Shown one piece after another: positions 2,589-42,339 of a DNA stretch of 64,000 nucleotides. How positions within the stretch are numbered: the first letter of the stretch is position 1; each line of letters begins with the position of its first letter. Position numbers and translations under genes: made by a program. The notes under the pieces are model-generated. The model had not been told where the DNA came from. It did no database searches and saw only the letters and a list, made by a program, of their open reading frames with translations. The stretch covers positions 64,969-128,968 of the forward strand of contig JAJPKP010000071.1 of assembly GCA_021323675.1 (NCBI GenBank), in the 5' to 3' direction. This DNA comes from Pseudomonadota bacterium (GTDB lineage Bacteria > Desulfobacterota > Binatia > Binatales > Binataceae).

Positions 2589-3629
2589 TCAGGCGTCGAG
2601 CCGGCTTGCCCATTTGCGCGCGGGACGCCGTTCCCATCCGCGCTTGTGGTAGCCGTATGCGGCGATCAAGGGAACCGCGATCGACGCCTCGCAATACACC
2701 ATCTGCTCGAAGGTCGTATCGACCTTGCCCCAGCTTGACGCTTCCTTGAGGGTCGAGCCCGACAGCGCGCCGTCGCGGACATCAGCCACCGTCACCTGGA
2801 TCGCGTATTTGTGCATCGGAACGTCGTGGCCGAGAATTTCGGCGGCGACGACGATGTCTTGGGCGAAGTTTTTGGGCACGCCGCCGCCGATCATGAGAAG
2901 CCCGGTCTCGTTGCCGAGCACCTTGATACGGGTGAGCTCGTGAAAATCCTGCGCGCTGTCGATTGTAACCCTGGCGCCCTTGGCTCGCGCCGCCTGATGC
3001 GCAACCAGGCCAAAGCCCGCGGAACAATCGCTGAAGGCCGGACAGAAGATAGGGACGTGCTCGCGATAGGCTTCGAGCACGATGCTGTTGTCGGCGCGGG
3101 CTCCCGTCTCGGCGAGATACTTACCCATCTCGCCCACGAACTCCCGCGATGAGTATGGGCGCGGTTCGAGCTGATCGGCGATTTTCCTGATCGTTTCGTC
3201 GCAAATGCGAAGCTCGTCTTCGTCGATGAGGGTGTCGTAGATGCGATCGATGTGAAGTTCGCGCAGCACTCCGTCCTCCAGCCCGGCGCGCAGGCGTTCG
3301 TCGGCGATATAGTGGCGGAAGCCGAGCGCCTCGAAGAAGTCCTGATCGACGATATTCGCGCCGGTGCTCACGACCGCATCGACCATCCGGTTGCGGATCA
3401 TGTCGGCGAACACTTTCTTGAGACCCGCGCTGACCAGCGATCCGGCGAGGCACAGGATGACGGAGCAGTTCGCATCGCGGAGCATCCGGTCGTAAATTTC
3501 GGCGGCCCGCGCCAGGTCGCGCGCGCTGTACGCCATATGCTTCATGGCTTCGACCAGCGGCACAACGTCGTGGCGGGTAATATCGACGTGCTGGATGGTT
3601 TCGGAGAGATATTCAGATTTTGACGGCAT
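2589..3629 (-). CDS. deoxyhypusine synthase homologue (DHS-like)
   Basis: 346 aa with DHS-family motifs (GANIVDQD, IGGGVPKNF) and the conserved catalytic-lysine context EASSWGKV. AGGAAGGA Shine-Dalgarno before ATG 3629; 24 nt downstream of the ECF T-component gene. Confidence 0.85.
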   Translation of the reverse strand: MPSKSEYLSETIQHVDITRHDVVPLVEAMKHMAYSARDLARAAEIYDRMLRDANCSVILCLAGSLVSAGLKKVFADMIRNRMVDAVVSTGANIVDQDFFEALGFRHYIADERLRAGLEDGVLRELHIDRIYDTLIDEDELRICDETIRKIADQLEPRPYSSREFVGEMGKYLAETGARADNSIVLEAYREHVPIFCPAFSDCSAGFGLVAHQAARAKGARVTIDSAQDFHELTRIKVLGNETGLLMIGGGVPKNFAQDIVVAAEILGHDVPMHKYAIQVTVADVRDGALSGSTLKEASSWGKVDTTFEQMVYCEASIAVPLIAAYGYHKRGWERRPARKWASRLDA

Positions 3630-4439: not shown

Positions 4440-6175
4440 CAGGCCCGCTCCTTGATCCAATCGGCCAGCGCCTGCGGGGTCAGGGCCAGCGCGCCGAAGC
4501 GGCGGCTGAGCCGGGTCACTTCCGGCGCGCGAAACGACGAATGCGCAAGAAGATCATCCTGAGCGAAAAATTCCGCGACGGTGCCGTCAAACAGCTTGCG
4601 GCCCTTGCGGATCAGAACGACGCGGCGCGCGTATTCCGCGACCAGCCACGGCGTATGGGTGATCATCACGATTGCGATTCCGCTGCGGTTCAGATCCTCC
4701 ACCAGCGCCATCATCCGGCGCTGTTCGCGATGGTCGAGGCCGGTGGTCGGCTCATCAAGAATCAAAAGCCGGGGACGCAGCGCCAGCACGCTCGCCACCG
4801 CGACCCGCTGGCGCTCGCCCTTGCTGAGCAGGAACGGATCCTTGTCGCGCGCGTCCAGGAGTCCGACGGCTTCGAGCACCTCGGCGCATCGGCGCTCAAT
4901 CTCCCGCTTGTCGAAGCCGAAGTTGCGCGGACCGAAAGCGACTTCGTCCCAGACCGTCGCGGCGGAAATCTGATGGTCCGGGTTCTGGAACACGTAGGCG
5001 ACCTCGCGCGCGGTCTCTGCCGCTCGCAGCGACGCGCGGTCGCGTCCTTCCAGCATCACGCGCCCTTCGTTGGGCTTGAGCAGCCCCACGATATGCTTGG
5101 CGAGAGTGGTCTTGCCGGAGCCGTTCTGCCCGACGATCGCGAGAAAGTCCCCGCGCTCGATGCGCAGATCGATGCCCTTCAGCGCGTGGACGTTTTCCGA
5201 ATAGCTGAAGGAAAGACCCGTCACCTCCACCAGCGGCGGCTCCCCGGATCCCGCCGGATCGGGATCTTTCGAGAGCGCCGTTGGCGAGGCGGGCGAGAAT
5301 GTCCGCAGGCGCGGAAAGGTCCGCACGATCGCTTCATACGCCTGGTCAACGCTGTCGGCATGCCCGCCGATGCCGAGCAAATGCAGGACGCGATTGAGTC
5401 CGGGAACGTGCACGCCGCACTCTTCGAGCAGATCGAAGTTTGTCATCACCTCCGCGGGAGGCGCGTCGGCGACGATCGTTCCGTCGTGGAGCAGAATGAT
5501 GCGGTCGGCGCGCATCAGTTCCTCGGACTCGTGCTCGATTACCACCAGGCTGAACCCCTGCTCGCGCAGCTTTGCGATGAGCGCGAAGACTTCCGCTTTG
5601 CCTTCGGGATCGAGATCGGTGGTGGGTTCGTCCAGGACGATGATCGAGGGCCTGAGCGCGAGCACGGAGGCGATCGCGAGCCGCTGCTTCTCTCCTCCGG
5701 AAAGCGAAGTCGGGTCGCGATGCTCAAAGCCCGCCAGTCCGACCGCTTCGAGCGCCGGGCGCAGGCGAGCCTGCATTTCGCCGCGCGCCATCCCCACCTG
5801 CTCCATGGCGAAAGCGACCTCGAGCTCGACGCTGGTCGAAAAGAGTTGCGCCTCGAAGTCCTGAAACACCATCCCGACCTCGGCGGCGGCCTCGCATATG
5901 CGCATCGCGTCGAGGCGGCTCTTTCCAATCATCACGATTCCGCGAAAGTCGCCTCCCTCGAATTCCGGAACGAGGCGATTGAGGCATTTGGCCAGGGTGG
6001 ATTTTCCCGCGCCCGACGCGCCCATAATCGCGATCATCTCGCCATGCGCTTGATCGAGACTGAGCGCGCGCAGCGCCGGTCCCGGTTCGCTCGGGTAGGT
6101 GTAGGTAACGTCCCGGACGGACAGAGCGGTATCGGCGGGCGTTCCCGCAATCGCGCTTTGCAGCTCGGTCTTCAC
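4439..6175 (-). CDS. ECF/ABC transporter ATPase with duplicated ATP-binding cassettes (EcfA1-EcfA2 fusion type)
   Basis: 578 aa. Two Walker A motifs (GASGAGKST and GQNGSGKTT) and two ABC signature regions. Confidence 0.85.
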   Translation of the reverse strand: MKTELQSAIAGTPADTALSVRDVTYTYPSEPGPALRALSLDQAHGEMIAIMGASGAGKSTLAKCLNRLVPEFEGGDFRGIVMIGKSRLDAMRICEAAAEVGMVFQDFEAQLFSTSVELEVAFAMEQVGMARGEMQARLRPALEAVGLAGFEHRDPTSLSGGEKQRLAIASVLALRPSIIVLDEPTTDLDPEGKAEVFALIAKLREQGFSLVVIEHESEELMRADRIILLHDGTIVADAPPAEVMTNFDLLEECGVHVPGLNRVLHLLGIGGHADSVDQAYEAIVRTFPRLRTFSPASPTALSKDPDPAGSGEPPLVEVTGLSFSYSENVHALKGIDLRIERGDFLAIVGQNGSGKTTLAKHIVGLLKPNEGRVMLEGRDRASLRAAETAREVAYVFQNPDHQISAATVWDEVAFGPRNFGFDKREIERRCAEVLEAVGLLDARDKDPFLLSKGERQRVAVASVLALRPRLLILDEPTTGLDHREQRRMMALVEDLNRSGIAIVMITHTPWLVAEYARRVVLIRKGRKLFDGTVAEFFAQDDLLAHSSFRAPEVTRLSRRFGALALTPQALADWIKERA

Positions 6176-6957
6176 ATCAATGCGAGCCCGGCGAATGCGA
6201 GCAGGATCAGCGGACTGACGAGAATAGCGATCGACTTGTCATGGGGCGCCGCGTTCATCCAGGCCGGAAGGAATGCCGGCACCCAATATCCCGTGGAGAG
6301 CAGATTTCCGAGCGCCCACGCGCCCCCCTCTCCAATCATCAGCAGCGCGATTCCGGCGACCCTGAGCGCGGCCGGCGGCGGCGTGAGCTCCGGCATCACG
6401 TCCTGATAAAGCATCCGGCCCTTGCGCACGCGCGGATATACGGCGGCAAGGATGAACGGCGACAGGACCATCGCCGAAGCCATGTTATTCAGGATGATGA
6501 CGTTGCCGAGCATCGCAAACGGCCGTATCGCAAGCAGATTATCACCCCATCCGACCAGATCGGCGCACAGCACGCTGGCGAGCAGACAGGCGAAGACGTA
6601 CTTCGCAAGGCCGAGCGGAGAACGGGGAACGGGGCTCTCGCCGCCTCCGATAGTCTCCCAGACCTTGAACGGCACCAGACCATAAACGAGGTTGGCGAAG
6701 AACCCGAAGATGTCTCCGGGCGAGGCACCGCCGAAGAAATCGCCGATCATGTTCCCGATCGCGCTTCCCCACGCCGCAGCCGGGCCGAACAGAAACGAGC
6801 ATACGACGGGGATTGCGTTGGCCGGCCTGAGCTCGGTGACGCCGGGAATCAGCGGCACGACCTTGAACGGCACCAGCACCGCCGCATACAGCGCCGCCGA
6901 AATCGCGCATAGCACGACCATCCGCGTGTTGCGCCACATCAATCTGAGGCCGTTCAT
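6172..6957 (-). CDS. ECF transporter substrate-specific (S) component-like membrane protein (QueT-like)
   Basis: Polytopic membrane protein directly upstream of the ECF A and T genes. The start is ambiguous: the ORF reaches 7104, but the hydrophobic core begins around MNGLRLMW (ATG 6957; alternatives 6939 and 6921). Confidence 0.55.
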   Translation of the reverse strand: MNGLRLMWRNTRMVVLCAISAALYAAVLVPFKVVPLIPGVTELRPANAIPVVCSFLFGPAAAWGSAIGNMIGDFFGGASPGDIFGFFANLVYGLVPFKVWETIGGGESPVPRSPLGLAKYVFACLLASVLCADLVGWGDNLLAIRPFAMLGNVIILNNMASAMVLSPFILAAVYPRVRKGRMLYQDVMPELTPPPAALRVAGIALLMIGEGGAWALGNLLSTGYWVPAFLPAWMNAAPHDKSIAILVSPLILLAFAGLALM

Positions 6958-15059: not shown

Positions 15060-16142
15060 CTACGGCCGCTTGAGGTCCTGGATGATCTCCTTGAGCACGC
15101 CGCGGTCGTGATCGTTGCGGACCGGCATATCGAAGCTGAGACGATTCACGCCGGCGAACCGCTTTTTGATCCTCGCGGCGATTTCATCGTAGGTGCCGAC
15201 TGCGGCGAACGCATGGACCATCTCTTCGCTGACCAGCTTCGCCATCTCGCGCCATCTCTGCTGGACTGAAAGCTTGTGCAGCTCCTCGGCGGTATCGGCC
15301 CATCCATCGAGCTCGAAACTGGAACGGTACGAGCGGGTGGAACCATAGAACGCGATGGTCGCTTTCATGTTCTCGACGCCGCGGGCAACCGCGTCCTTGT
15401 CCTTGCCGGCTATCAGGAACCCGCCGCCGCCGATCTGAAACTGGTCCCATTCTGAAGCGGGCCGGCCGGACTTCTCGAAGCCCTTTTTGAGGTTGGGAAA
15501 CGCGATCTGGTCGAGATATTTGCGCGTTACGATTCCGTGCAGGCGGACGCCATCGCACACCTCGCCGGCAACCTGCAGCATCCGTTCCTGCACGGCGGCA
15601 ATCAGCACGGGGATATGCGGATGCGCCTGCGGGGGCGGCGAAAAGTTCGGCGTCATCAGCGAGATATTGTAGTGCTCGCTGCGAAAGTTGAGCGGCTCGC
15701 CCGTCTGCCACGTGCGCCAGCACGCGCGCATCGCGCCGACATAGTCTTTCATCCGCTGCGCAGGCTTCGACCACGGCATCCCGAATCTGCGCGTGACATG
15801 GCCCTTCACCTGTGATCCGAGACCCAGGACCAGCCGTCCACCGCTCATTCGTTGCAGGTCCCAGGCAGTGTAAGCGGTGGCGACGGGGCTCTTGGTGAAG
15901 CAGAGGGCGATTCCGGTTCCCAGCTCGATCTTCGCGGGCTCCTGCGCGGCGATCGCAAGCGCAAGGTAGGGATCGTGCTGGGTTTCAACCGCGATAGCGG
16001 TGTCGTATCCCAGCGACTCGGCATCGCGCACCTGGTCTCTCAGCGTTGACCAGGTGGGCTCGGGCCGCTTGCCCTCCTGCTGCATGTCGGGCGAGTAGGG
16101 AGTTCCGAAATGAAGTCCGCGTTCTACCTTGATGGTGGCCAT
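15060..16142 (-). CDS. LLM-class (luciferase-like) flavin/F420-dependent oxidoreductase
   Basis: Luciferase-like monooxygenase fold similarity. Start ambiguous between TTG 16178 and ATG 16142. Confidence 0.75.
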   Translation of the reverse strand: MATIKVERGLHFGTPYSPDMQQEGKRPEPTWSTLRDQVRDAESLGYDTAIAVETQHDPYLALAIAAQEPAKIELGTGIALCFTKSPVATAYTAWDLQRMSGGRLVLGLGSQVKGHVTRRFGMPWSKPAQRMKDYVGAMRACWRTWQTGEPLNFRSEHYNISLMTPNFSPPPQAHPHIPVLIAAVQERMLQVAGEVCDGVRLHGIVTRKYLDQIAFPNLKKGFEKSGRPASEWDQFQIGGGGFLIAGKDKDAVARGVENMKATIAFYGSTRSYRSSFELDGWADTAEELHKLSVQQRWREMAKLVSEEMVHAFAAVGTYDEIAARIKKRFAGVNRLSFDMPVRNDHDRGVLKEIIQDLKRP

Positions 16143-16208
16143 GCGCCGTTTATCTCGTTGCGCAGGCAATGATGTCAAGCGCGCATGGCAGAGAATATCG
16201 CGCCCGGT

Positions 16209-17559: not shown

Positions 17560-18921
17560 TTACTGGAGATCGGGAGGGGTGACCTTGGCAATCCACTCGC
17601 GGAAACTGCCGGTGTAGCCGACGGACTGCTGCCGATCGCGAACCCGGCGGACGATACCTTCGACCTGGTCGGCCGAGAGCTTGGGCCGCGCATCAACCAG
17701 CGACGCGATCTTTTCGCCCTCGGCATGCGCCTCTTTGCGCGCTCCATCAGCAATCGGTATCTGTTCGCCGCTAAGACCCAGGTATGCCTCGGCAACCCGG
17801 ATACCGACCTCGGTTCCGCTCTCGAGCGAGTCCTTGATGTTGCCTTTGCCGGTCAGAACGTTGCCCGCGGCAAACACCGCCGTGGGTCCGTCGATCAGCA
17901 AGCCGGCTTTTTCGTCGGCGTACCTGTAGGTCTCGCCCTTCTGCGGAATTCCGGGGATCGGCTCGGGAATACTGCCGATCGAGCTGATCGTAAGGGGCGC
18001 TCGCACCGTTTCGACCCGGTTGGGGAGAATCCGCACCTGGCCATCGGAGACTTCGGTGACGCTGAACTGAACCCCCACCATCCTGCCCTCTTCGACCACG
18101 ATACCGGTGGGGGCGCGCAATTCCTGAAACTCGAACAGGAACTTGCGCATCGCTTTTTCCAGGATCTTGGTCCGGGCCATCCGCAGGCTTTCAACGCGTT
18201 TCGCGGGCGCGTCCGGCGGAATATCGGACAGGGGCATGTCGAGCACCCGCCGGCGGTAGAAGAGCTTGCAGGGGGCGATACCCAGGTCCGCCCAGGTGAG
18301 ATTGTGGCCCTGCAGCACGGCGTCGATTCCCTCGCGCTCGAGCCGCACCATTTCTTCGCGGATGCCGCGGGCGGCCAGAGTCCTCTGCGCCATCTCGATT
18401 TGCAGGACCTTGACCACGTCGATCGACGCGAGCCCGCCGCCGACGACGATGGCTCCCGGCTTCAGGTCGTAGCGCGGACCTTTGTAGCCTTGCTCCTGGT
18501 AGTGATTGAACCAGTAGATGAGCGCGTTCTGGTAAATCAGGCCCTTGTCGACGAACTGATCGGCGCCCTCGACGGGCAAGGGGCGGTCGCGCCATGCGCC
18601 GTGCGTGAGCACGATCGCGTTAAGGCCCCATCCGGTGCGCAAAGTTTCGAAGTCGATATCGCGGCCCAACCTGGTAAGAGGGACGAAGGCAACGTTGGGA
18701 TGGTCGAGGCGGCGATTAATCTCCTCGTATTCGTCCTTGCGCTGCTTTACATGCCATCGCGGCAGACCGTCCTCGATCTTGCCGTAGGGTCGCGGATTCT
18801 GCTCGAACACGATCACCAAGGCGCCGCGTTCGGCGAGAATACGGGCAATCTCGGAGCCTGCGGTCGCCGCTCCGATGACCGCGACGATGTGTCGCGCGGC
18901 AACTTTGTCCGGTTCAGCCAT
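17560..18921 (-). CDS. FAD/NAD(P)-binding oxidoreductase (two-dinucleotide-binding-domain flavoprotein; function unknown)
   Basis: N-terminal Rossmann motif IVAVIGAATAGSEIA and a second GxGxxG region (IVVGGGLASIDV), 453 aa. Confidence 0.6.
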   Translation of the reverse strand: MAEPDKVAARHIVAVIGAATAGSEIARILAERGALVIVFEQNPRPYGKIEDGLPRWHVKQRKDEYEEINRRLDHPNVAFVPLTRLGRDIDFETLRTGWGLNAIVLTHGAWRDRPLPVEGADQFVDKGLIYQNALIYWFNHYQEQGYKGPRYDLKPGAIVVGGGLASIDVVKVLQIEMAQRTLAARGIREEMVRLEREGIDAVLQGHNLTWADLGIAPCKLFYRRRVLDMPLSDIPPDAPAKRVESLRMARTKILEKAMRKFLFEFQELRAPTGIVVEEGRMVGVQFSVTEVSDGQVRILPNRVETVRAPLTISSIGSIPEPIPGIPQKGETYRYADEKAGLLIDGPTAVFAAGNVLTGKGNIKDSLESGTEVGIRVAEAYLGLSGEQIPIADGARKEAHAEGEKIASLVDARPKLSADQVEGIVRRVRDRQQSVGYTGSFREWIAKVTPPDLQ

Positions 18922-29247: not shown

Positions 29248-29646
29248 CTAGGGAGGCGGCGGGGCGTCGCGCTGCGGCATCTCCCGGCCTTCCCGCGAAT
29301 TGCGCCGCGTTGCGTAGGGCAGGAACTCGCGATCGAACTTTTCCTGCTGCTCCGGCGTGAGCGTGGCGCGAATCTGCTGGAGAGCCTGCGCAAATGCCTG
29401 GCGGCGCGCGCGCCGATAGTCCTGCTGGAACTGAATAATCTTTACGCGAGTGTCCGCCATGATGTCGCGTATCTGGACCATCTGCGCCTGGCTCAGGCGA
29501 AGTTCACGCTCCATCCGAAGCACCATCGGTTCCCCCGGCACGCGCAGAATCCGGTACCGGTACGCGAGCGAACTGGCGGTAAACCCGATTAGCAGCGAAG
29601 CAACCACTGCCAGAACGAGGGTCGAAGTGTTGAACCTATCCGGCAA
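29248..29646 (-). CDS. periplasmic LTXXQ/CpxP-Spy-like stress protein
   Basis: Signal peptide plus LxxxQ-type repeats (LSQAQMVQIR, LTPEQQEKF). TTG start overlapping the anti-sigma gene end. Confidence 0.5.
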   Translation of the reverse strand: MPDRFNTSTLVLAVVASLLIGFTASSLAYRYRILRVPGEPMVLRMERELRLSQAQMVQIRDIMADTRVKIIQFQQDYRRARRQAFAQALQQIRATLTPEQQEKFDREFLPYATRRNSREGREMPQRDAPPPP

Positions 29647-30070
29647 GGTCTTCGCTCTGAGGGTTCAGGTCCGAACCGAACATCAGCGTCGCGATCGGAT
29701 CGGTGCTCAGTTCCTCGCTCAGCGTCCCGACAGGAGCGGTTACGGAAAGATAGGCCGCTACTGAGGCGGCGATCAGAGCCGCCGCCGCGGCGCTCACTGC
29801 AAGCCGCCCTCTCCTCCTGACACTGGCGCGCATCATCGCCGCGGGACGGCGGGCGGCGGGAGAATCAGCCGGTTCGGGCCGGTCAGCGGCCGGACGGCGA
29901 GGCGGCTCGACGGCGGACTGCAGCACCGGCGCGCTCATCGCAAAGGTCCGAAAGGCACGATCGCACTTTGGACAGGCGGCCAGATGGGCGGTCAGAGCGG
30001 CGCGACGATCGGGCGCAAGCTCGCGCCGCCAAAAGGCGGCGAATTCCTGTCTGGCTTCAAAGCAATCCAT
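29636..30070 (-). CDS. anti-sigma factor, zf-HC2 type (RsrA/ChrR-like)
   Basis: MDCFEARQEF...AHLAACPKCDRAF carries the H-x3-C-x2-C zinc motif, followed by a TM segment. Start set at ATG 30070, 10 nt after the sigma-factor stop. Confidence 0.65.
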   Translation of the reverse strand: MDCFEARQEFAAFWRRELAPDRRAALTAHLAACPKCDRAFRTFAMSAPVLQSAVEPPRRPAADRPEPADSPAARRPAAMMRASVRRRGRLAVSAAAAALIAASVAAYLSVTAPVGTLSEELSTDPIATLMFGSDLNPQSEDLAG

Positions 30071-30080
30071 GATCGTTCTT

Positions 30081-30716
30081 CTATCGGTCACTCCGCTCGG
30101 CCGATCTCAGCCGCTCGGCATACTTTCGCAACGCCTGGCGCGCCCTGAAAGCCCTGATCTTAACTTTCGCCTCGCTCCAGCCCATTATTCCGGCTATCTC
30201 GCTCACGTTCAGGCCCTCGCTGTCCTTCAGAATCAGCACGGTCCGGTCTTCCGGCTTGAGCGTGTCGAGCAGGCAATGCGCTACGTCGTGCGCCTCGCGC
30301 ATTTCTTCCGCGGCGGCGACGATCTCTTCCGGCGTCGCATCGTTGACCAGATGCATCCATTGGACTTCTGGCGCCGTGAAGTCCGCGATCAACTCCTCCG
30401 GGCGCCTGCGCCTGCGTCTCAACTCGTCATAGCACAGGTTGGTCGCAATCGCGCGGAGCCATCCTGTGAACGGCATCTCCCGCCGGTAGCTGGCCAATGC
30501 CGTGTATGCGCGGATGAAGCATTCCTGCGCAAGATCGCGCGCAATCTCCGGGTCCGAAAAGAAGCGCTGACAAAGCCGTTCAACGTACGAACGATGGCGC
30601 CCAGCCAGCTCCGAAAAAGAGGCCGTCTGACCGCCCAGAATTTCGGCTATCAGCTCCTCGTCGGTTCGAACCGCCAATCTCCAACCGGTCTTTCTGCTCG
30701 CGGCGACGCCCAGCAT
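30081..30716 (-). CDS. ECF (group 4) sigma-70 factor
   Basis: Sigma-70 region 2 and region 4 motifs. Start ATG 30716 with an AAGAGGA Shine-Dalgarno 5 nt upstream. Confidence 0.8.
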   Translation of the reverse strand: MLGVAASRKTGWRLAVRTDEELIAEILGGQTASFSELAGRHRSYVERLCQRFFSDPEIARDLAQECFIRAYTALASYRREMPFTGWLRAIATNLCYDELRRRRRRPEELIADFTAPEVQWMHLVNDATPEEIVAAAEEMREAHDVAHCLLDTLKPEDRTVLILKDSEGLNVSEIAGIMGWSEAKVKIRAFRARQALRKYAERLRSAERSDR

Positions 30717-30797
30717 GGTTGTCCTCTTGATAATACGAACGCCCCGCAAAGCGGTTACGCGATTATGGACGGCCGGCAAACGCCCCAACCATCGAGG

Positions 30798-31415
30798 CTA
30801 TTCGGGCTCGTTCTTCGGCGGAGGACCAAGCCCCGCCCGCGCCAGATCGCCGGGCGTGTCCAGGTCCAGGGTGACGCCCGGATCTTCGACGTCAACGTAT
30901 GCGACCCGAGCCGGGTCCGCATTGACAACCCATCGCGCCCCCTGCTCTTCGGGCGCATCCAGCAGCTCGCCAAAGACTTCCTTCGCGAAGAGGACCGGAT
31001 GCCCCCTGCGGCCGGCATAGCGCGCTATCACGATCGGATATCGCCGCGATGCGAACTCATCGGCAACCGCCTGGAAGGTCGAAGCGAGGACCAGGGGATG
31101 ATCAGCCAGATGGACAATCACCGCGGCCGCATCGGCATCGATCGCCCTGAGAGTGCATTTCAGCGACGAAAGCTGGCCCCGCTCAAAGCCGGGATTGTGA
31201 ACTGTCTTCACCCGATGGTCGGAGGGAATCTCGGCCCGTACGCGTTCTCGATGCGCGCCGGTGACGACGATCACATCGCGCACAACTTCGAGCATCGTGC
31301 GCAACGTTCGCCGGAGAAACGTTTCGCTATCGATCTTGAGGAGCGGCTTGGGAAATCCCATCCGGCGCGATTCGCCCGCCGCCAGCAGAACCCCTTCGAT
31401 TGGGAGCCGCGCCAT
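30798..31415 (-). CDS. MobA-like NTP-transferase domain protein (molybdenum-cofactor cytidylyltransferase MocA-like)
   Basis: LLAAGESRRMGFPKPLL N-terminal signature. Confidence 0.7.
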   Translation of the reverse strand: MARLPIEGVLLAAGESRRMGFPKPLLKIDSETFLRRTLRTMLEVVRDVIVVTGAHRERVRAEIPSDHRVKTVHNPGFERGQLSSLKCTLRAIDADAAAVIVHLADHPLVLASTFQAVADEFASRRYPIVIARYAGRRGHPVLFAKEVFGELLDAPEEQGARWVVNADPARVAYVDVEDPGVTLDLDTPGDLARAGLGPPPKNEPE

Positions 31416-31427
31416 GACGGCCGCTCG

Positions 31428-32579
31428 TCAAGCGGAGGGTTTGAGGCGGCCCAGCTTAACGCCCAGGTTGGCCGCATCGCGCGCGCCCGATCGCCGCTCA
31501 CGCACAATTTCCGCGATTATCGAGACCGCGATCTCTTCGGGAGTCTCCGCCGCGATATCCATCCCGAGCGGAGCGTGCACCTGGTCGAGCAGCTCGCGCG
31601 CGATGCCGGCTTCTTCGAGCCTGTCCAGCGTCGCCTTCACCCGCCGGCGCGATCCGATCATCCCGATAAAGGCTCCGCGCGAATGCCGCAGCGCGGTACG
31701 CACCACCTCTTCGTCGAAGGAATGGCCGCGGGTCACGGAGACCAGGTAGCAATGGCGGTCGAGCGCCAGGCTTTCGATCGCCGCGGCAAAGGGCCGTACC
31801 ATTATCTGATCGGCGGATGGGAACCGTTCGCGATTGGCGAACGACGCGCGGTCATCGATCACCGTCACATGAAATCCCAGCATCGATCCAAGCGCGGCGA
31901 GCGGCTGCGCAATATGGCCGGCTCCCGCGATCACGAGGCGTTGCGCTCCCGAGACCGGATCCAGAAACATCCGCGGCGCATCCCCTTCGACACGAGTAAC
32001 AGGATTTACGCCGCCGGTGTCGCTGATTTCGATCAAAGCCGGCACGCCATCCATGGTGCGCGCCACCAATTGGACCATCGCGCGCCGCGGAATCTCCAGA
32101 GCCGGCGCGAGGCGGCTTTCGCCGTCGGACGAATCGACGATCGATTTTGCGCCAACGGGATCATCCTGGCGCGGGCTGTGCACAAGGGTCAGCAGCGAAG
32201 CGGGCTGGCTGCGCTCGGCGGCGGAAGCAAGCCGCCTTGCAATATCGAGATCGCTGCCGGGCGCCCATATCGCGACGAACACATCCATGATGCCGCCGCA
32301 GGTGCCGATTTGCTGTTGGTCGAAGTCGCCGGTGAGATCCACTTCGGTCATGCGGGCGCCCTGCCCTTCATCGAGCAACAGCCGCGCCTTGCGAAAGACC
32401 TCGGCCTCGCCGCATCCTCCGCCGATAGTTCCGAACTGGCCGTCGTCGCGAACAATCATCTTCGCGCCGACTTCCCTGGGCGTGGAACCGCGTACGTTCA
32501 CCACGGTGGCGAGGGCGAACTTCCTGCCGCTTTCAAGGGTGCGGACGGCTTCGGGCCAAATCTGATCGGGTCCCATCAT
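31428..32579 (-). CDS. XdhC/CoxF-family molybdo-hydroxylase maturation factor
   Basis: XdhC_CoxI N-domain (ALATVVNVRGSTPREVGAKM) and a Rossmann-like XdhC C-domain (LVIAGAGHIAQPL). Confidence 0.8.
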   Translation of the reverse strand: MMGPDQIWPEAVRTLESGRKFALATVVNVRGSTPREVGAKMIVRDDGQFGTIGGGCGEAEVFRKARLLLDEGQGARMTEVDLTGDFDQQQIGTCGGIMDVFVAIWAPGSDLDIARRLASAAERSQPASLLTLVHSPRQDDPVGAKSIVDSSDGESRLAPALEIPRRAMVQLVARTMDGVPALIEISDTGGVNPVTRVEGDAPRMFLDPVSGAQRLVIAGAGHIAQPLAALGSMLGFHVTVIDDRASFANRERFPSADQIMVRPFAAAIESLALDRHCYLVSVTRGHSFDEEVVRTALRHSRGAFIGMIGSRRRVKATLDRLEEAGIARELLDQVHAPLGMDIAAETPEEIAVSIIAEIVRERRSGARDAANLGVKLGRLKPSA

Positions 32580-32617
32580 GCTTCTGATTTAACCGTATCA
32601 GAAAAGTCCCGCTCCGG

Positions 32618-32920
32618 TTACATGCCCAGGCGTCCGAGGATCGCGTTGGCCTTGACCAGGTTTTCCTCCGCTTGATCGTAGGCGCCGGCGGCCATCGCCT
32701 TCTCGGCGCTGGCATCCAGCTCCAGCGCCTGATGCAGTTGCGCGCGCACGGCGGGATCGGTCGGGCCTTCGTCGGAAAGATGGGCGAGCTTGAGCGATAC
32801 TTGGCGTTCGAGGCTGCGAAGCTCAGGCGACGGTTGCCTCTTCAGGTCAGCCGCGAAACTCGTCGCGGCTATCGCGGCGATGCCGGCCGCAATCGCAAGC
32901 ATCCTCAGCGGACCGCGCAT
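32618..32920 (-). CDS. small secreted hypothetical protein
   Basis: Signal peptide (MLAIAAGIAAIAATSFA); 3-nt gap to the upstream peroxiredoxin stop. Confidence 0.45.
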   Translation of the reverse strand: MRGPLRMLAIAAGIAAIAATSFAADLKRQPSPELRSLERQVSLKLAHLSDEGPTDPAVRAQLHQALELDASAEKAMAAGAYDQAEENLVKANAILGRLGM

Positions 32921-32923
32921 CGT

Positions 32924-33370
32924 TCAACCTCCGATCGCGTCGGCCAGCACGCTGGCCGGATGATCCCTCGGGTCCACCCGATCGTAAACGCGCGCGATAC
33001 GCCCCTGCTCGTCGATAAGGAAGCTGACCCGGTTCGGCCACTTCGCCTTCGCGTCGCCGCACGCGCCGTAGGCAAGCGCCACGGTGCGGTCGAGGTCGCT
33101 AAGCAGCGGGAACTTGAAATCGTTCTTGCGGGCGAAGGCGGCGTTGGCTTCGACGCTGTCGAAGCTCACTCCGAGGATCTGGATCTTGTTTTCGTCAAAA
33201 TAGTTCTGTTGGTCGCGGAACCCGCGGCCTTCGATGGTTCAGCCAGGGGTATCGGCCGCGGGATAGAACCATAGCAGCACCTTTTTGCCGCGCAGATCCT
33301 TGAGCGAGATGGTTGTTCCGTCGTGGGCCGCCAGAGAGAAATCTGGCGCGAGGTCTCCTTGCTTGACCAT
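32924..33370 (-). CDS. Bcp/PrxQ-type peroxiredoxin with an in-frame TGA (candidate selenocysteine) at the peroxidatic position
   Basis: ATG 33370 with a GGAGGTG Shine-Dalgarno 5 nt upstream, translating MVKQGDLAPDFSLAAHDGTTISLKDLRGKKVLLWFYPAADTPG-TGA(33241-33239)-TIEGRGFRDQQNYFDENKIQILGVSFDSVEANAAF...LIDEQGRIARVYDRV. The Bcp fold is continuous across the TGA, which occupies the T-P-G-[C] position. The ORF track shows only the C-terminal 81 aa. Confidence 0.6.
33211..33229 (-). other. SECIS-like hairpin 9 nt downstream of the in-frame UGA
   Basis: mRNA GGCCGCGG-GUU-CCGCGACC: 7 bp with one C·A mismatch, and an apical GGUUC resembling the GGUC loop of bacterial SECIS elements. Confidence 0.4.
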
Positions 33371-33406
33371 TGTGCACCTCCGCCGAGCGGTCGTCGGCCG
33401 CTCGAT

Positions 33407-33892
33407 TCAGTTAAGCATCGCGCGCAATCGCGCGAGCATCGAAAGACATCCCTGTTCGCCGGGCTGAATTTCCAGCGCCCGCTCGAGCTCGCCGATAGCC
33501 GCGGTGATCATTCCCTTCGCCGCGTAAACGCGCCCAAGGTTCATGAAAGGAAAGTGGCGCGGTTCGTAGCGCGGCGCGTGCTTGGCTTTTTCAAGCCAGG
33601 GAATCGCGCCGTCGAGGTCTCCTTTCGCGATCAGATATGCTCCTATGTCGTTGTAAGGATTACCATAGGACGGGTCGACTTCGATCGCCCGCCGGCATTC
33701 CGCAATCGCGTCATCGATTCGCCCCATCCCTTCGTAAGCCCATCCGCGAAACGTATACGCCTCGGCGGTGGGGAAGATTTCGATCGATTTGGTGTAGAGC
33801 TCGATCGCGCCGGCAAGGTCGTTGCCCATGTGCCGCTGATAACCGGCATTCCACAGTTCCAGCGCGCGCTTCTTTCGTTCGTCCTCGCTCAC
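33407..33892 (-). CDS. TPR-repeat protein
   Basis: Three to four TPR units (AYTFRGWAYEGMGRIDDAI...). Confidence 0.7.
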   Translation of the reverse strand: MSEDERKKRALELWNAGYQRHMGNDLAGAIELYTKSIEIFPTAEAYTFRGWAYEGMGRIDDAIAECRRAIEVDPSYGNPYNDIGAYLIAKGDLDGAIPWLEKAKHAPRYEPRHFPFMNLGRVYAAKGMITAAIGELERALEIQPGEQGCLSMLARLRAMLN

Positions 33893-41274: not shown

Positions 41275-42339
41275 ATGGAATTCGGAACCCTGATTTTTAC
41301 CAAGCCCGAGCGCGCGATGCGCGATGTGCCGTATGCCGAGGAGCGCGGATTTTCGCACGCCTGGATTCCCGATTCTCACATGATCTGGGGCGACACCTAC
41401 GCGTGCATGGCGCTTGCCGCAGTCAATTCCAAACGCATCAAGCTCGGCACCGGCGTGGCGATCTCGACCAATCGCATCCCGCCCGTGACCGTCCATGCGA
41501 TCGCCACCATCAACCAGCTTGCACCCGGACGCACCATCCTTGGCTTCGGAACCGGACACACCGGGCGCAGGGTGATGGGACTGCCGCCCGTGAAGCAGGA
41601 AGTCTTCCGCGAAGAGGTGCGGGTCATCCACGATCTGCTTCGCGACGGCGAGGCCGACTACCGGACCGAAGGGATGGAGCGAAAGATCCGCTTTCTTCAT
41701 CGCGACCTTCGGTTTATCAATCTCGACGACAAGATTCCCTTCTATGTAGCGGCCAACGGCCCGAAGACGCTGGCGCTTGCGGGCGAATTCGGCGACGGTG
41801 TCATCACGACCGGCATCACCACGCCAGAGCGGATGGCGACGGTTCGCAAGCATATCGAAGAAGGAGCGCGAAGGTCGGGACGGTCGGGCAAGGATCTGCC
41901 GGTGGTCTCGCTGACTCACGTCTGCGTTCTCAGGCCGGGCGAGGCGATCGATTCGCCGCGAGTGAAGGCGATGACGGGACCGTGGGTGATGGCTTCGCTG
42001 CACGCGATTGCGGCCGGCTATGCGCGCCCTACTTCGCTTGCGCCCGAGGTCAGCAAGGTTTACGACGAATACGCGGCGCACGTCGCGCGGATGCCCGAAC
42101 GGGAGCGCTATCTCCATGTCCATCTCGGGCATTGCACGTTCGTAGCTCCCGAGGAGAGAAAATTCGTCACGGCGGAAACGATTCGCGCCACAACCATCGT
42201 TGGCGAGCGCGAAGCGGTGATCGATCAATTGCGCGCGCTGGATAAAGCGGGGCTGAGCCAGATTTTCCTGAATCCGCCGATGGACGGATTCAACGAGTGT
42301 CTTGACGACATCTCGCGCGAACTGATCGGCCGCGTGTAG
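41275..42339 (+). CDS. LLM-class flavin/F420-dependent oxidoreductase
   Basis: Luciferase-like TIM-barrel similarity. GGGAGAGAGA Shine-Dalgarno. Confidence 0.8.
   Translation: MEFGTLIFTKPERAMRDVPYAEERGFSHAWIPDSHMIWGDTYACMALAAVNSKRIKLGTGVAISTNRIPPVTVHAIATINQLAPGRTILGFGTGHTGRRVMGLPPVKQEVFREEVRVIHDLLRDGEADYRTEGMERKIRFLHRDLRFINLDDKIPFYVAANGPKTLALAGEFGDGVITTGITTPERMATVRKHIEEGARRSGRSGKDLPVVSLTHVCVLRPGEAIDSPRVKAMTGPWVMASLHAIAAGYARPTSLAPEVSKVYDEYAAHVARMPERERYLHVHLGHCTFVAPEERKFVTAETIRATTIVGEREAVIDQLRALDKAGLSQIFLNPPMDGFNECLDDISRELIGRV

Follow-up and report, generated by a model that had tools for sequence, protein, structure and literature searches.

A peroxiredoxin gene from an uncultured soil bacterium of the Binataceae almost certainly encodes a small antioxidant enzyme with selenocysteine (Sec) in its active site. 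The gene lies on the minus strand of the window (the whole stretch of DNA that was analysed, 64,000 nucleotides long), and comparison with its relatives strongly supports Sec recoding at codon 44. According to the preferred reading, to which a probability of about 0.88 is given, UGA 33241-33239 would be decoded as Sec by means of a hairpin, SelB and tRNA-Sec, yielding a 148-residue thiol peroxidase of the Bcp/PrxQ type. The direct evidence comprises the reading frame, the alignment column in which the TGA falls, the persistence of both TGA and an open frame in many phyla, purifying selection acting 3' of the TGA and an RNA-level constraint that is specific to TGA forms.

Reading frame, active site and family of the interrupted gene

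The elements of the gene on which the analysis is based are the following:

33375..33381, minus strand: Shine-Dalgarno GGAGGTG, 4 nt 5' of the ATG, read directly from the sequence
32924..33370, minus strand: predicted Sec-containing Bcp/PrxQ-type peroxiredoxin, 148 codons including UGA codon 44, from ATG 33370-33368 to the true stop TGA 32926-32924
33239..33241, minus strand: in-frame UGA, codon 44, predicted selenocysteine at the peroxidatic position of P37-x-x-x-T41-x-x-U44
33211..33229, minus strand: SECIS-like hairpin GGCCGCG-GGUUC-CGCGACC, starting 9 nt 3' of the UGA and present in both the MFE and the centroid folds
33059..33061, minus strand: Cys104 codon TGC, candidate for the resolving residue, the protein having no further Cys
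33029..33031, minus strand: codon of Arg114, the conserved peroxiredoxin active-site Arg, 3' of the UGA

Read from ATG 33370, the part of the protein that precedes the TGA is MVKQGDLAPDFSLAAHDGTTISLKDLRGKKVLLWFYPAADTPG. TGA 33241-33239 is the sole interruption of the frame, and the 104 codons that follow are free of stops up to TGA 32926-32924; this translation agrees exactly with that of the first-pass annotation, which had reported a frame with a single internal TGA. Gene callers split the gene because of the TGA codon at the active site, which is almost certainly Sec. The mechanical ORF list thus holds a 43-aa piece (33370-33239) and a GTG-started 81-aa piece (33169-32924), as expected from the earlier remark that the ORF track breaks the gene and displays the 81-aa C-terminal part. 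The good Shine-Dalgarno sequence GGAGGTG that had been described is present, with a spacer to the ATG of 4 nt rather than the 5 nt originally given.

For profile and structure comparisons, Cys was modelled at codon 44. The protein matches Pfam AhpC-TSA (PF00578) over residues 5-126 (E = 4.8e-35) and Redoxin (E = 2e-23), and the best solved-structure matches are Bcp proteins such as 3drn, 5enu, 2ywn and 3gkk. The top NCBIfam match is Bcp NF006960, with 125.9 bits; since this best score falls under the equivalog cut-off of 140, the protein is assigned to a Bcp-like branch and not to the strict Bcp equivalog. The match to the PrxU model NF040737 (233 positions) is poor, with 43.7 bits against a cut-off of 270, so the window peroxiredoxin is not a PrxU orthologue, and the Prx-SUH selenoprotein model gives 21.5 bits, far under its cut-off. 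Among full-length database proteins, the nearest are peroxiredoxins of 148 aa with no more than 76% identity, and many of these are labelled Candidatus Binataceae.

The first-pass annotation had placed the TGA exactly on the peroxidatic Cys, and the alignment agrees: the stop column is Cys in 15 of the 15 close full-length homologues aligned, which read TPG-C-T-x-EGRGFRD, this residue being the peroxidatic Cys of PxxxTxxC. Among 190 aligned homologues (109 Sec forms and 81 Cys forms), T41, U/C44 and R114 are invariant. A resolving Cys at CP+5 is typical of the Bcp/PrxQ subfamily, without being universal. In the window protein this site, which holds the resolving Cys of canonical Bcp, is occupied by Arg49, and throughout the branch CP+5 is Arg or Ser. 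The replacement of the CP+5 Cys by Arg had led to the proposal of a 1-Cys/Sec type; the replacement itself stands, but the label is not established by it and is best regarded as plausible but unproven, since Cys104, which is present in 77% of Sec forms and in 91% of Cys forms, is a possible resolving residue. Most Sec forms elsewhere also carry Cys91, a position at which the window protein has Ser.

The bacterial selenoprotein family Peroxiredoxin (Prx), PF00578, with the motif TxxU, has long been known and is abundant (Zhang and Gladyshev surveys; 2026 review PMC13188914), and 253 members were counted in the GOS metagenomes (PMC2398784). Switches between Sec and Cys, including inferred conversions from Cys to Sec, have been reported for this family (PMC1794560). 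The member cited as its experimental benchmark (Sohling et al. 2001, as cited in PMC13188914) is PrxU of Eubacterium acidaminophilum. The window gene shares with the family the AhpC-TSA domain, a predicted Sec at the peroxidatic site of PxxxTxxU and Cys homologues that are far more numerous. There is no essential difference, the window gene belonging to a Bcp/PrxQ-type branch from Binataceae marked by U-T-x-EGRGFRD. As the TxxU peroxiredoxin is already an established bacterial selenoprotein, the gene is, at the level of sequence motifs, a predicted further member of a known family, in the form of a Bcp-like branch with EGRGFRD. PrxU of E. acidaminophilum is likewise a Sec peroxiredoxin, with a longer profile that the window protein matches poorly. 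With Cys-type Bcp/PrxQ proteins (NF006960; 3drn Bcp1 and 3gkk Bcp) the common features are the set of P, T, CP and R residues and the FRD motif after the CP helix, whereas the window protein has a predicted Sec in place of Cys and Arg49 at the resolving-Cys site CP+5 of Bcp.

The TGA column across genomes and the SECIS-like hairpin

A species-representative scan (one genome per GTDB species) was carried out with the pattern ACN CCN GGN TGA NNN NNN GAR GGN MGN GGN TTY MGN GAY. TGA was found in the peroxidatic column at at least 120 loci from about ten phyla, and the matches listed, which come from more than 120 species genomes, reduce to 116 unique TGA genes. In nearly all of the listed loci the peroxiredoxin frame is intact: about 43 codons lead from the start to the TGA, and the frame then stays open for about 100-110 codons. 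The pattern TPG-TGA-xx-EGRGFRD amounts to about 47 bits, so that fewer than 0.1 matches would be expected by chance over the approximately 1.2e12 positions searched; the recurrence of at least 120 loci, nearly all in intact frames, is therefore far beyond chance. The listed loci carry the labels Binatia/Binataceae, Thermoanaerobaculia, Vicinamibacteria and other Acidobacteriota, Eisenbacteria, Planctomycetota, Marinimicrobia, Myxococcota, Actinomycetota and Methylomirabilota, and their proteins diverge widely from the window protein.

The nearest relatives among the matches listed are both TGA forms, L087 (Binataceae) with 82% identity and L024 with 79%. On the 3' side of the TGA, dN/dS of the window gene is 0.055 against L087 and 0.080 against L024, with dS above 1 and synonymous sites saturated; on the 5' side the values are 0.10 and 0.083. 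Such values, at dS above 1, indicate that the segment 3' of the TGA has been translated throughout the divergence from these two relatives, and a TGA that truly terminates is incompatible with purifying selection on the downstream codons. The earlier claim of Sec recoding rather than decay is thus upheld by a conserved TGA column with both halves of the frame intact, by the downstream dN/dS of 0.055-0.08 and by the hairpin constraint of TGA forms described below, as well as by orthologues that have either Cys or TGA within one and the same gene neighbourhood and by identical copies of the gene in independent assemblies.

Several individual loci depart from this general picture. Three of them look decayed or mis-assembled: in L006 (Binatia chromosome OZ241744.1) codon 50 is GGA and a TAG occurs nine codons past the TGA, an extra TGA is found at codon 129 of L100, and in L105 the frame is broken both before and after the TGA. 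The genome OZ240210.1 (Marinacidobacterales, 9.2 Mb) harbours at least four to five near-identical Sec-form copies (L029, L057, L066 and L069), in one of which, L069, the N-terminus is replaced. Furthermore, Binatia-like versions of the gene (L007, L056, L071, L102 and L115) occur on records labelled Klebsiella pneumoniae or uncultured Enterobacteriaceae MAGs, labels that are probably taxonomic errors in public records.

Hairpin 33229-33211 spans the codons G48-R49-G50-F51-R52-D53 and the first base of Q54. The stem consists of 7 pairs with one C.A mismatch, the apical GUU/GGUUC loop lies at 33222-33218, and the energy of the 19-mer is -8.9 kcal/mol. The window hairpin is not thermodynamically exceptional in comparison with expectation (z = -0.70 for a 47-mer and +0.55 for an 81-mer), and folding energy by itself therefore lends no support to a SECIS. 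In 78 sequences analysed by RNAalifold and pair counting, 89.6% of cells were paired with no compensatory changes, and shuffles equalled the observed value. Compensatory covariation is not possible in this hairpin because the arms of the stem encode the invariant G-R-G-F-R-D. Rfam searches of the whole window at the gathering threshold, and of 32850-33450 at E up to 10, gave only chance miRNA and snoRNA matches.

Covariation being uninformative, synonymous sites were compared between the 116 Sec forms and a control set of 90 Cys-codon forms of the same motif from metagenomes. Gly50 is GGG in 110 of the 116 Sec forms but in only 7 of the 90 Cys forms (Fisher 2.6e-41), GGG being a minor Gly codon in the window (about 15%), and Phe51 is TTC in 114/116 against 19/90 (Fisher 1.1e-34). 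Gly48 is GGU in 61/116 Sec forms and 11/90 Cys forms (Fisher 7.3e-10), which gives a U-A pair at the site of the C.A mismatch of the window. The six-base loop string GGUUCC occurs in 108/116 and 2/90, respectively, and the mean energy of the 19-mer is -10.3 kcal/mol in Sec forms compared with -6.4 kcal/mol in Cys forms (Mann-Whitney 3e-18). Restricting the comparison to sequences with 68% or more identity to the window gene leaves the synonymous contrast in place, which means that more than an ancient phylogenetic division is involved. The window gene has the full Sec-form consensus (GGG TTC, CGC, GAC C), while the signature of the Cys forms is GGC/GGA-TTT. The hairpin, in its loop and closing-pair bases, is therefore constrained at the RNA level in TGA forms only.

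Like the SECIS of E. coli fdhF, the window hairpin lies within the coding sequence directly 3' of the UGA, and in both the apical loop is G-G-U and begins some 20 nt past the UGA. It differs in its shorter stem (7-8 pairs), in its spacer of 9 nt instead of the 11 nt of fdhF and in having no bulged U, with a C.A mismatch in the window that is U-A in 61 of 116 relatives.

Two variants of the element were observed among the Sec forms. In a minority (L010, L017, L074, L015, L029, L032 and L036), the region 20-40 nt past the TGA contains GGAUUC or GGGUUC, then CGYGAUC, then GAAUCC; the alternative hairpin that these form has 6 bp and a 7-nt loop and lies a few bases further 3', with codon 50 often GGA. 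Two SECIS designs may thus coexist within the Sec peroxiredoxin family. In Sec forms with Ser49 (AGC), e.g., L055, L067, L068, L083, L090, L091, L095, L107 and L120, the stem gains a tandem G.A/A.G at the opposite position and is lengthened by A-U pairs between GAA (Glu47) and CUU (Leu54), which looks like a compensating rearrangement of the hairpin.

Probable Sec decoding and rival readings of the in-frame TGA

Three other origins of the TGA have been weighed against Sec decoding. A Cys-type bcp gene that acquired the TGA by nonsense mutation, leaving a pseudogene, or through faulty sequencing or assembly, as an artefact, would require only one substitution from either Cys codon (TGC or TGT to TGA), and the closest full-length database proteins, at no more than 76% identity, all have Cys. 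This origin is nevertheless very improbable. The exact 43-aa product is on record in 18 contigs, with the TGA recurring in four independent sources, and the exact 81-aa product in 16; the 447-nt gene, TGA and hairpin included, is base-identical in nine of the nine contigs read of the 18 on record. These nine derive from three NCBI assemblies, ENA ERZ27279671, JGI 3300005607 and Logan runs, and differ slightly in their neighbouring-gene calls. Sequencing error is excluded because the gene is identical in nine contigs from independent assemblies, and no frame disruption beyond the single stop first reported appears in these independent data. A mutated Cys gene is also at odds with TGA forms being the closest relatives among the matches listed, with a synonymous signature of GGG-TTC (Sec) and not GGC/GGA-TTT (Cys), and with the purifying selection 3' of the TGA. 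A variant genetic code, in which TGA would be a sense codon, e.g., for Trp or Gly, has nothing in its favour except the in-frame TGA itself and can be dismissed almost entirely. TGA ends 17 of the 50 well-supported ORFs of the window, the peroxiredoxin among them; it is thus an ordinary stop in this genome, and recoding must be site-specific. No second TGA-interrupted gene was found in the window, the other candidates being adjacent same-frame genes or non-coding frames. Moreover, the genome has 62% G+C, which is unlike the known lineages with reassigned TGA.

A gene that is of Sec type by descent but not decoded as Sec in this organism would yield either, the machinery having been lost, a 43-residue fragment (a very recent pseudogene) or a product of low-level read-through by a near-cognate tRNA (Trp or Cys). 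This reading is unlikely. In its favour, Sec and Cys have switched frequently (at least 11 times by parsimony), the decayed appearance of L006, L100 and L105 indicates that such genes can be lost, and the roughly 84 kb covered contained neither sel genes nor tRNA-Sec. The 64-kb window has no tRNA genes according to ARAGORN, and searches with ARAGORN and tblastn of the window plus 10 kb past each end found no selA, selB, selD or tRNA-Sec. This absence is uninformative rather than negative, since about 84 kb represent about 2% of a genome. The probes were E. coli SelA, SelB and SelD sequences, validated by scores of 632, 920 and 621 bits against their respective NCBIfam models; over about 220 fetched loci, neither tblastn with these probes nor ARAGORN gave a genuine match to the Sec machinery. 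A match with 26% identity (E = 0.002) inside a QueT-like gene was rejected as spurious. Against a loss of decoding, the window gene has no second lesion and retains the exact Sec-form hairpin consensus and the Shine-Dalgarno sequence, it is identical in nine contigs although the neighbouring genes differ slightly, and, compared with its nearest TGA relatives, it has dN/dS values of 0.055-0.10 both 5' and 3' of the TGA.

Under Sec decoding, the reading preferred here, we infer the insertion of Sec itself, a sel machinery elsewhere in the genome and the chemistry of recycling. By analogy with the fdhF SECIS of E. coli, hairpin 33229-33211, with its apical GGUU loop, would recruit SelB carrying Sec-tRNA(Sec), and the ribosome would then insert Sec at UGA 33241-33239 rather than terminate. 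The full-length enzyme would retain the peroxiredoxin active site formed by P37, T41, U44 and R114. The selenolate of U44 would attack peroxides to produce a selenenic acid, and the reduction of this intermediate would proceed by one of two routes: directly, as in 1-Cys enzymes, by a partner resembling thioredoxin or glutaredoxin, or by way of a selenenylsulfide formed with Cys104.

Gene neighbourhood, evolution and wider context

The peroxiredoxin gene belongs to a same-strand block (29636-33892, minus strand), whose other members are the following:

33407..33892, minus strand: TPR-repeat protein gene, the conserved upstream neighbour, 36 nt from the peroxiredoxin start and adjoining Sec and Cys forms in many loci
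32618..32920, minus strand: 100-aa protein with a signal-peptide-like N-terminus, downstream, its ATG 3 nt past the peroxiredoxin stop
32579-31428, minus strand: XdhC-family (aldehyde oxidoreductase) maturation factor, by family profile match
31415-30798, minus strand: MocA-like molybdenum cofactor cytidylyltransferase, by family profile match
30788-30081, minus strand: ECF sigma factor, by family profile match
30091-29636, minus strand: anti-sigma factor, by family profile match

The order TPR, Sec-peroxiredoxin, 100-aa protein, XdhC, MocA, ECF sigma and anti-sigma is common to Binataceae loci of the Sec and Cys forms. In the closest loci the TPR gene upstream and the 100-aa, XdhC, MocA and ECF sigma genes downstream are shared, so the Cys and TGA forms are positional orthologues. 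The 100-aa protein gene, which is kept downstream in L087, L024, L100 and the closest Cys-form loci, is probably co-transcribed with the peroxiredoxin gene, to judge from its position; a profile search gave no family match for its product. The downstream genes at 29636..32579 are taken as genomic context only. An inverted repeat, GAGCGG-CCGACGA-CCGCTC, lies at 33403-33385 (minus strand), within the 36-nt gap, 3' of the TPR stop codon (TGA 33409-33407) and 5' of the Shine-Dalgarno sequence of the peroxiredoxin gene, without a following T-run. A promoter and terminator scan around the peroxiredoxin operon gave no signal exceeding the shuffled expectation.

In a neighbour-joining tree, which is weak, being built on 148 residues, the window gene, L087 and L024 form a three-leaf Sec clade inside a 70-leaf clade of otherwise Cys forms. 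The remainder of the tree is mostly Sec, and parsimony needs at least 11 switches. The topology suggests that the EGRGFRD branch might be ancestrally Sec, with the GRG tripeptide fixed for the sake of the SECIS. The Gly-Arg-Gly codons (GGY CGC GGG) occupy the place of x-Ala-Cys in canonical Bcp, including the resolving Cys, and provide the 5' arm that pairs, codon for codon, with the Phe-Arg-Asp codons (UUC CGC GAC); the matched Bcp structures also carry FRD. It can tentatively be proposed, as a possibility that we consider somewhat doubtful, that the whole U-T-x-E-G-R-G-F-R-D Bcp branch goes back to a selenoprotein and that the SECIS moulded its amino-acid sequence, the abundant Cys forms of soil Binataceae being secondary reversions from Sec to Cys. 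If so, a resolving Cys would have been surrendered to build a recoding signal, and the Cys forms would keep a 'fossil' GRG, with drift having changed the loop bases to GGC/GGA and UUU.

The understanding of how Sec peroxiredoxins work is unchanged by these results, which bear mainly on annotation and distribution. The window gene and its relatives in species-representative genomes, at least 120 of them, are currently split in two or would be called pseudogenes. No dedicated NCBIfam model attains its cut-off for this branch, Bcp being the best but below it and PrxU and Prx-SUH far below. The string TGA-N9-GGN-CGC-GGG-TTC-CGC-GAY-C constitutes a simple and specific nucleotide marker that could rescue the split genes. 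Sec decoding of the window gene would also imply Sec-decoding members within the Binataceae, an uncultured soil lineage, and no report of Sec use in Binatota/Binatia was found in the literature searched. Finally, orthologous peroxidase genes that switch between Cys and Sec offer a compact natural system for studying when Sec pays off.

Some other genes of the window are also worth recording. Neither the 621-aa ORF at 4541-6406 (plus strand) nor the 453-aa ORF at 17560-18921 (minus strand) matches Pfam at E up to 1e-5; the former has an unusually high first-position G+C (0.76), and it may not be a real gene. LLM-class oxidoreductases of the F420-dependent type are encoded at two sites, at 15060-16178 (minus strand), above the TIGR03617 cut-off, and at 41275-42339 (plus strand), which matches such models only below their cut-offs. 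A homologue of 1,9-bis(guanidino)-5-aza-nonane synthase is encoded at 2589-3629 (minus strand), with a score of 598.8 bits, above the cut-off.
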